Shown piece by piece: positions 36,594-38,529 of a DNA stretch of 64,000 nucleotides. Below the pieces are notes generated by a model. It had not been told where the DNA came from. It was given only the letters and a program-made list of their open reading frames with translations, and did not search any database. A program made the position numbers and the translations under genes. How positions within the stretch are numbered: position 1 is the stretch's first letter; every line of letters begins with the position of its first letter. This DNA comes from Eledone cirrhosa (taxonomy: Eukaryota): assembly GCA_964016885.1 (NCBI GenBank), contig OZ024741.1:286440001-286504000 (forward strand), given 5' to 3'.

Positions 36594-36797
36594 TTACCCA
36601 CTCTACTACCCAAAGTATTGAGTACTCTGATGCGTTATGGTCCACCTCGTTCCTTACCACACTTCCTTCGTTATATATATATATATATATATATATATAT
36701 ATATATATAGAGAGAGAGAGAGAGAGAGAGAGAGAGAGAGAGAGAGAGAGAGAGAGAGAGAGAGAGAGTTATGTAATAAACAAGATAAGGCAATTAT

Positions 36798-36855
36798 TCC
36801 ATTTACCAGTGGTTTCTTAAAAACAAAAAATTTTGCTTTCAATCATCAGAATGAA
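36798..36855 (-). ncRNA. Type I hammerhead ribozyme motif, family A copy 1
   Basis: Reverse complement matches copy 2 except one stem II C>U; CUGAUGA...GAAA-CCACUGG-UA core intact. Confidence 0.82.
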
Positions 36856-36909
36856 AAAATCATGAATTTGGATTTTAAAATCCAAATTCAATAAACAGAC
36901 CAGGATTTT

Positions 36910-36967
36910 TTCATTCTGATGATTGAAAGCAAAATTTTTTGCTTTTAAGAAACCACTGGTAAATGGA
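36910..36967 (+). ncRNA. Type I hammerhead ribozyme motif, family A copy 2 (intact core)
   Basis: UUCAUU-CUGAUGA-UUGAAAGCAAAAUUUUUUGCUUUUAA-GAAA-CCACUGG-UA-AAUGGA: stem I UUCAUU/AAUGGA, full core, long stem II, short stem III, GUA triplet (predicted cleavage after 36961). Confidence 0.85.
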
Positions 36968-37200
36968 ATAATTGCCTTATGTTGTTTATTACATAACTAT
37001 TAAGCTCTGTTACCTACATAGAGCACTCTTTTTTCCTGGACTTTTCCGGCGGAATTACTTCACATATATATATATATATATATATATATATATATATATA
37101 TAAATGAAGTAATTCTGTCGGAAATGTACAGGAAAAAAAGAGTGCTCTATGTAGGCTACAGAGCTTATTAGTTATGTAATAAACAAGATAAGATAATTAT

Positions 37201-37258
37201 TTCATTTACCAGTGGTTTCTTGAAAGCAGATATTGTATGTTTTCAGTCGTCAGAATGA
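37201..37258 (-). ncRNA. Type I hammerhead ribozyme motif, family A copy 3 (diverged stem II)
   Basis: rc UUCAUU-CUGACGA-CUGAAAACAUACAAUAUCUGCUUUCAA-GAAA-CCACUGG-UA-AAUGAA; core kept, perfect 6-bp stem I, stem II loop changed. Confidence 0.78.
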
Positions 37259-38529
37259 ATAAAAAACATGGTGTTTTTATTAAATATGGATTTGAAAATA
37301 AAATTTAAGAAATATGAAAGTGAGGCTGAGAAAAAAAAAACGGGCGAAAGGAAGAAAAAAAACAAATATATATATATAAACAATAATTATCCAGAACGTA
37401 AACATACACACACTAAACCACGCGCATATACTTAAAAAGTACGAAGACGTATACTTTTTCACATAAGTGTATTAGCGTCTACAGACTGACATAAATACAT
37501 ACACATACATATACAAGAAGTAATAGATAAATAAAAACAAAAAATATACAAAGTCAAAAACAAAATAAAGACAAAAAGGAGACGTGTTAACAACGATATG
37601 GGTGTGTGGAGGGATGGGGCGGGGAAATAAAAACAACTTAAAAAGAAACAAATACATGAGATGTGCATATACATAAATATATATATATATATATATATAA
37701 GTATACACATACATACACACACACACACACATATACAAGCATAGATAATCATACACACGTATAAAAACACACACACATATGCATGTGTATATATATATAT
37801 ATATACACAAAAATATAAAATAAACATACGTACACATACACATACACGTGCGAGCAAAAAAACATATACACATACACAACCACACGCATACACACGTATA
37901 TATAAACATGCATACAACCATATTACACACACATCCACATACATACATACATACATACATACATACATACATACATACATACATACATACATACATACAC
38001 ATAAAAGTCTACAATAAAGAGCATTGGTTCATAACCTACGTACATACGTATACAAATGCTTGCGCGCGCACGCAGGTAATAAGAAATCAACACACACATA
38101 CAAAAAAACCCATACGTAAATCAATACACACATAATAAAGCATATATACAACCGCATACACACACATATACGTAAACATATACATATAACCAGATATAAA
38201 AATAATATAAACATATACAAACACACACATATATATATATACACACGAACACATATAGATATATATATAGATATATATATATATATATATATATATATAT
38301 ATATACATACATATATATATACATACATATATATATACATATATATATATGTATATATATACACGCACACATACACACACACATACACACACACATACAA
38401 TTAAATAATCAAAATACTATAAAAGTATGTACACATAAGCCTGTCTGCATATGCACCCGCACACAACCCTATGTGAGTACATTAAATAACCTAGTGGGTA
38501 AGTAAGGACAAAAGGGGAGTAAAATTGAA

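Follow-up and report, generated by a model that had tools for sequence, protein, structure and literature searches.

Two Hydra-clade Penelope-like element 3′ ends very probably form a cluster of hammerhead motifs around a (TA)n tract in Eledone cirrhosa

A cluster of three hammerhead-shaped motifs in the Eledone cirrhosa genome, which is 3.0 Gb long and rich in microsatellites, very probably consists of 3′ ends that belong to two Hydra-clade Penelope-like elements (PLEs). The two elements lie on opposite sides of a single (TA)n tract and are oriented towards each other; they were likely inserted independently, and their hammerheads are predicted to be active as dimers in a tandem parent RNA and mostly inactive at this locus. 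The cluster lies in a 64,000-nucleotide stretch of contig OZ024741.1 (the window), and the coordinates below count from its first nucleotide.

The initial annotation of this DNA had described three hammerheads in the order −, +, −, and this description is borne out by copy 1 (36797–36856, minus strand; core start 36849, H17 at 36804), copy 2 (36909–36968, plus strand; core start 36916) and copy 3 (37201–37259, minus strand; core start 37253, H17 at 37207). All three copies contain the CUGAnGA, GAAA and GUA elements reported as intact, and a type I core (C3-A9, G12-A14, A15.1-U16.1 and H17) is found in each with three helices that are open at helix I. The cleavage site expected after 36961 is correctly placed because H17 of copy 2, the position after which cutting is predicted, is at 36961 when counted from its core start. 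The stem II opening was also described accurately, as U-A in copies 1 and 2 and as C·A in copy 3. Other aspects of the geometry require revision: stem I has the reported 6 bp in copy 3, whereas it has 7 bp in copies 1 and 2, and the long stem II of copies 1 and 2 (11–12 bp) does not fit the label ‘minimal’. Stem III of all three window motifs is the near-palindrome ACCA-C-UGGU, for which the proposed 1-nt loop is not feasible, as RNAfold forms 3 bp and a 3-nt loop in the monomer.

When folded in isolation, copies 1 and 2 adopt the hammerhead as their minimum free energy structure and copy 3 comes within 1.9 kcal/mol of it; the three motifs are best read as Penelope-type type I hammerheads, with cleavage itself being predicted. 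A loose descriptor scan of the 64 kb returned four matches versus an expectation of 0.12 derived from 100 local first-order Markov sequences; copies 1 and 2 were among the four, and copy 3 escaped detection, as the descriptor required positions 10.1 and 11.1 to pair. The other two matches, at 44866–44918 (minus strand) and 61896–61987 (minus strand), have TA-rich stems and are likely to represent chance or other families. The suggested Rfam comparison did not yield a hammerhead model match to the three motifs: at gathering scores there were no matches in the whole window, and at E≤10 the 114 matches across 36450–37350 included no hammerhead family. The best of these were miRNA-precursor models, far below their cut-offs, which matched because of the long inverted repeats.

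Copy 3 forms the 3′ terminus of a broken, 5′-truncated element that encodes a reverse transcriptase (RT) and an endonuclease (insertion B, 40257 to 37103), since the sequence past 37260 runs into the UTR and RT-endonuclease ORF of one truncated element. On the minus strand, this insertion reads from a broken ORF (38857–40257) through a 1.6-kb microsatellite-rich 3′ UTR (37260–38856) to copy 3, which occupies its 3′ pLTR, followed by a tail (37103–37170) and the (TA)n tract at 37063–37102, and its 5′ end also adjoins a (TA)n tract (40257–40273). The broken frame covers residues 206–711 of an intact relative, in the order RT, linker and GIY-YIG, and is split from 40257 to 38857 into five pieces in three frames, with several stops and frameshifts; the individual pieces match intact ORFs at 65–93%. 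The UTR is common to other copies of this subfamily (subfamily B). When 40 of 2,708 candidate relatives of copy 3 were scored and 29 other loci were fetched, the same UTR continued for at least 100 nt in 19 of the 29, and two (L041 and L049) carried the endonuclease stretch in inverted orientation at 90–92% identity. At these two loci and at L080, element ends are fused directly to inverted endonuclease-coding sequence, i.e., they are long-range template switches inside one element.

Copies 1 and 2 appear to be a separate truncated insertion (insertion A) from a sister subfamily that has full-length members encoding a 711-aa ORF. Insertion A is a fold-back in which a 116-nt inverted 5′ arm (36767–36882, minus strand) and a 188-nt direct arm (36875–37062, plus strand) are joined at the palindrome TTTTAAAA (36875–36882), which likely provided the microhomology for a template switch; the two arms differ by two substitutions and a ~12-nt deletion. 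The inverted arm stops at a ‘short’ terminus, without a tail, and is flanked on its left by a (GA)n microsatellite (36710–36766) that directly follows (TA)19 (36672–36709). The direct arm is the putative 5′-truncated 3′ end (pLTR) of a Hydra-clade PLE and continues through a 62-nt tail (37001–37062), which separates the short from a long terminus, up to the 37063–37102 tract that was the target common to both insertions. Therefore, the placement of the cluster around a (TA)n tract holds for copies 2 and 3, which flank 37063–37102, and not for copies 1 and 2, which meet head to head at the palindrome, and the repeat units of 90–160 bp are replaced by arms of 116 nt for copy 1 and 188 nt for copy 2 and by an element of ~3.15 kb for copy 3.

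The same organization recurs elsewhere in the genome. Among the best 30 loci obtained by scoring 40 of 1,458 candidate relatives of copy 2, 23, including the one in the window, have the inverted arm and seven lack it; all 23 inverted arms end at the short terminus, ~62 nt before the end of the direct arm, and the long direct arm in this set is an effect of the choice of query. A head-to-head pair with two long ends is found in another subfamily (L084/L085). The direct arm is 97% identical to a pLTR that lies upstream of the ORF at L061, a locus which has the exact core and stem II of copy 2 and the order pLTR, ORF (with one frameshift), UTR and 3′ end. In a close subfamily, L126 contains an inverted pLTR followed by a pLTR, a 711-aa ORF, a UTR, a further pLTR and (TA)n.

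These observations bear on the central proposal of the initial annotation, that the cluster is a protein-free, non-autonomous, retrozyme-like hammerhead module which is moved by a Penelope RT and cuts RNA of either strand. The Penelope part of this proposal stands, as these type I hammerheads occupy the pLTRs of ORF-bearing elements and would be spread by a Penelope RT. Most genomic copies are indeed short non-coding stubs, a similar tail-to-tail pair of the two subfamilies across (TA)n exists at one of the 29 other subfamily B loci (L057), another locus (L066/L067) holds a near-perfect tail-to-tail palindrome, and the isolated motifs fold as hammerheads, of which two copies co-fold as a double hammerhead. 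However, copy 3 is joined to an RT-endonuclease ORF, the sequence of copy 2 is the pLTR of ORF-bearing copies, and the stubs vary at their 5′ ends while sharing UTR sequence with full elements. The window has no head-to-tail hammerhead array, its copies being inverted relative to one another, and copies 1 and 2 are predicted to be sequestered by antisense arms. The linkage to an ORF largely refutes a protein-free module, which we regard as highly improbable, and the single unit that had been annotated is divided into element B, from 40257, and a separate insertion from a sister subfamily.

The relationship between copies 2 and 3 also argues for two insertions. Because these copies are 86% identical to each other while their nearest relatives elsewhere are 99% (copy 2) and 96% (copy 3) identical to them, they can be assigned to two subfamilies, and two insertions from two subfamilies is the simplest reading of the sequence. 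If copies 2 and 3 had instead originated together, by inverted duplication about the TA tract, and diverged later, this would account for their symmetry across the tract and for their ending at the same tail nucleotide, and near-identical tail-to-tail pairs do occur elsewhere. At L066/L067 (G000:C1:3570786-3571117), for example, two near-identical copies lie tail to tail across (TA)n, and this palindrome may reflect one event primed on both target strands. The identities to separate subfamilies, each with a diagnostic stem II, make such an origin very unlikely for copies 2 and 3, and it survives only if the two templates were packaged together and both copied during one insertion. Under the two-insertion reading, insertion B is likely to be older than insertion A because it is more diverged and has a broken ORF. 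Similar ATC/ACC-rich sequence is present at 36200–36420 and 40240–40380, on either side of the cluster as a whole (36465–40273), which suggests growth of the cluster within an older repeat or duplication.

The parent elements can be assigned to the Hydra clade by motifs and by an eye-guided match to the Hydra-1_Obim protein, which runs parallel to the intact ORFs. Three intact ORFs (L125–L127), from six stretches that were fetched and picked for long open frames, are 707–711 aa long, with YRDD at ~345 and YVG at ~594. Assigned at the level of motifs, the order of RT followed by a C-terminal GIY-YIG domain is also present in the broken copy in the window. RWK and DKT (a modified DKG) occur in all three intact ORFs, in a region that truncation removed from the window copy, and a CxCX5C linker and the endonuclease CxxC and CxH motifs are found in L125–L129 and in the window translation. 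Inspection by eye revealed no evident CCHH, CxC domain or IFD. The features present agree with the Hydra clade as it is described in a published survey, namely RWK, DKT, CxCX5C, CxxC/CxH and GIY-YIG at the C terminus, with (TA)n targeting, hammerheads, inverted 5′-truncated copies and tails (Craig et al., 2021; PMC8557442), the last two of which are exemplified by Penelope-13_HM in its File S1. The hammerhead differs from that of Hydra-1_Obim outside stem III and thus points to another family, so these elements probably represent a new family within a known clade, in a layout that has already been described.

The element unit is ~4.7 kb between the two sense hammerheads of L126 and exceeds the size of Hydra elements, which are generally <3 kb as a tendency rather than a strict criterion (Craig et al., 2021; PMC8557442), because of a microsatellite-rich UTR that measures 1.5–2.3 kb in the longer stretches. 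A hammerhead was seen downstream in only six of 30 endonuclease loci when a 1.5-kb flank was inspected, a length that the UTR mostly exceeds. Assignment to Naiad, which the YRDD motif and the (TA)n target could suggest, was rejected: Naiad PLEs have the endonuclease N-terminal to the RT and no canonical hammerhead, whereas the endonuclease is C-terminal here and Hydra motifs and a hammerhead are present. Selenoprotein read-through was also dismissed as needless, as the intact ORFs contain no internal stop. Pfam searches with four ORF stretches returned nothing informative and named neither RT nor GIY-YIG; these silent stretches include a fragment at 9093–9503 (minus strand) that resembles the RT of another Penelope-type element.

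Additional mobile elements are visible in the window. Two related, broken non-LTR retrotransposons in opposite orientation (16793–22099, minus strand, and 24636–29897, plus strand), which have a zinc-knuckle ORF1, an endonuclease and an RT, are presumably L1/Tx1-like. We also take a fragment at 10291–10968 (minus strand) to resemble a hAT transposase and one at 13295–14339 (plus strand) to resemble the C terminus of a non-LTR retrotransposon. Finally, a 52-nt two-copy repeat at 45304–45410 adjoins (TA)n and is possibly the terminus of another element.

The genome-wide check on copy number and on a link to a Penelope ORF, which the initial annotation had called for, was positive on both counts: the pattern CTGANGA-N20-40-GAAACCNNNGGTAA has 14,758 exact genome matches versus two in the control, and pLTR hammerheads lie beside 711-aa ORFs. 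A 19-nt tail word gave 6,217 exact matches versus none in the control. Among 30 pattern loci, some of which stem from the same insertion, as its two arms or as matches that overlap, 29 have (TA)n or (CA)n after the motif, at a distance of either 33–51 nt (15 loci) or 98–113 nt (14 loci). As the microsatellite marks the terminus, element copies end at two fixed points ~62 nt apart, both adjoining microsatellites.

Conservation of the ribozyme was assessed in 30 loci that were picked by the tail word, without regard to the ribozyme; a full motif could be scored in 18, and the remaining 12 were without one (truncated, inverted or deleted copies, with L086 missed by the spacer limit). The core is intact in 15 of these 18 full copies. 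They form three sequence groups that have the core in common, while stem II is 39–62% and the downstream flank 62–77% identical. Over 75 distinct contexts, stem I is paired in 96% of cells, compared to 38–56% when the register is slid, and it covaries, with sequence changes on both sides between subfamilies; stem II has a better fold than shuffled sequences (z ≤ −2) in five of eight cluster representatives. Within subfamilies, 3 of 198 core positions differ versus 29 of 884 in the flank (raw counts from 18 copies, with mismatches limited by the finder), so the core is not measurably better kept there and the conservation signal lies between subfamilies. Selection therefore likely acts in active master elements, with neutral decay in their copies, including those at this locus.

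The opening of stem II had been presented as unusual for lacking G-C at 10.1/11.1, and it proves not to be special within the Hydra clade. Across the 75 contexts, the two positions are CA in 36, TA in 26, AA in 5, AG in 3, AT in 2, CT in 2 and GA in 1, so that none has G-C, and many of the Hydra motifs in File S2 open stem II with U·U or G-U (PMC8557442). By comparison, G10.1-C11.1 has been called highly conserved (Cervera and De la Pena, 2014; PMC4209133).

Another fold-back terminus, from a different family, lies in the same (TA)n cluster at 36499–36671. A 32-nt word from this neighbour family recurs without mismatch at 10,758 places, and one of its copies (L161) has a Hydra-type endonuclease upstream. 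Its copy in the window retains only the 3′ half of a hammerhead. In fuller copies (6,123 matches), stem II is long, the G10.1-C11.1 pair is present and the core deviates from the standard; in 100 among the matches listed, this core is UUGANAA (U3-A8) in 80, CUGANAA (a C3·A8 mismatch) in 18 and UUGANGA in two, with no C3-G8. The U3-A8 combination is known from Schistosoma PLEs.

The tails of insertions A and B contain the same bulged hairpin, which has the form RCTC, an upper stem, a 2-nt 3′ bulge and GAGY, followed by AC. In the window family (~37004–37024, plus strand, and ~37140–37165, minus strand), the lower stem is GCTC/GAGC and the upper stem is short, while in the neighbour family (~36598–36622, plus strand) the lower stem is ACTC/GAGT and the upper stem is different but paired. 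The hairpin is thus kept with compensatory changes in two unrelated families; since the regular expression prescribed the lower stem, an independent test is provided by the upper stem only. By eye, the same frame is present in the published consensus sequences examined for Hydra-1_Ajap, Hydra-2_Ajap and Hydra-2_Amil (sea cucumber and coral). A description of this hairpin was not found in the PLE and hammerhead literature that was searched, though supplements and subscription papers may hold one. We tentatively propose, at somewhat less than even odds, that the tail hairpin is a clade-wide signal by which a Hydra-type RT would bind its RNA and set the two start sites, and that a hammerhead which is kept without G10.1-C11.1 through the near-complete rewriting of stem II would be a ribozyme that is assisted by dimer formation or by protein and whose 10.1/11.1 junction is free.

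A mechanism for the two-insertion reading can be suggested by analogy with the Poseidon element PAc of the anole, in which the tail is delimited by two internal sites where RT starts, and the ribozyme depends on the protein and is not required for insertion in vitro (PMC11167929). The element protein would nick (TA)n, reverse transcription would begin downstream of the hammerhead, at either of two internal sites, and the two termini would correspond to these RT start sites. An aborted first strand, followed by fold-back or a second priming, could then generate the inverted arm. Because (TA)n reads identically on both strands, a later copy could land tail to tail with an earlier copy at the same tract.

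Small PLE hammerheads reportedly cleave as dimers, and the suggestion that dimeric cleavage is plausible here agrees with folding predictions. Two free copies of copy 2 are predicted to co-fold into a double hammerhead, in which stem III has 4+4 bp around a C·C mismatch, and this dimer is more stable than two monomer folds by 9 kcal/mol. Similarly, metazoan PLE motifs with a small palindromic helix III have been predicted to need a dimer and are described as having low activity in vitro (PMC4209133).

The same type of prediction contradicts the claim that the cluster cuts transcripts from either strand, since each motif is paired with its own antisense arm when folded in context. Read-through RNA is predicted to form long duplexes that sequester the cores, of ~115 bp between copies 1 and 2 and of ~160 bp, 86% matched, between copies 2 and 3, and in a plus-strand transcript the antisense arm comes before copy 2. 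In these folding energies, which are equilibrium predictions, the penalty for the active fold in context is 75 kcal/mol for copy 2 on the plus strand, and 37 kcal/mol for copy 1 and 78 kcal/mol for a double hammerhead of copies 3 and 1 on the minus strand. The mirror-image layout would thus block self-cutting instead of enabling it. Copy 3 alone is penalised by only 5–7 kcal/mol, the value in full context being 5 kcal/mol, so slight minus-strand cutting may be possible.

Long hairpins predicted on either strand could also be of use to a host, and it is conceivable that the locus arose by two insertions and was then co-opted as a source of long dsRNA (for small RNAs or editing) or as a transcript-cutting element. 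The sub-threshold miRNA-precursor matches reflect such hairpins, and all three cores are intact. However, intact cores are normal for copies of such age (15 of the 18 full copies described above), thousands of like loci exist in the genome, and no host gene was identified in the ORF list of the window, so co-option appears extremely unlikely. Insertion without later co-option is the preferred reading, and clusters of hammerheads in alternating orientation can be considered by-products of fold-back insertion and of shared (TA)n targeting that are predicted to silence themselves.

As one among thousands of Penelope stubs, the locus itself matters little. The family is of value as a resource, as it combines intact-ORF copies, many subfamilies that keep the core and rewrite stem II, two sharp termini and a conserved tail hairpin, and with it one could examine the reason for which hammerheads are retained in PLEs and the way in which the RT picks its start sites.

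The window family shares features with several known systems. Like the metazoan PLE hammerheads described in PMC4209133, its motifs are type I, lie in pLTRs, have a long helix II and a palindromic helix III, and are mostly dispersed single copies from truncated PLEs; pairs ~100–700 bp apart on opposite strands have already been noted there. Unlike those hammerheads, the window family is without G10.1-C11.1 in all of its 75 contexts. Non-LTR retrozymes of animals likewise consist of repeats that are non-coding, contain type I hammerheads and are related to the pLTRs of PLEs, but they are defined by head-to-tail tandem hammerhead units, unlike the copies in the window, which are inverted, one of them being joined to an ORF (bioRxiv 10.64898/2026.07.22.740005).

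A mechanistic parallel is drawn here to Poseidon PAc of the green anole, which also has two termini split by a tail, an AT-rich target and a pLTR hammerhead. It differs in belonging to another clade and in having its tail inside the ORF, whereas the ~62-nt tail of the window family is upstream of the ORF start (PMC11167929). Among Hydra elements, Hydra-1_Obim and Penelope-13_HM resemble the window family in ORF motifs, a 3′ hammerhead, a (TA)n target, an inverted 5′-truncated copy and a tail. The Hydra-1_Obim hammerhead shares its stem III frame (acca-N-tggt) with the window family; differences between the two are visible by eye in stems I and II and at the 3′ end. Unlike known Hydra elements, the window family has a longer unit, a longer stem II, U-A or C·A at 10.1/11.1, many subfamilies and >10,000 motif copies.
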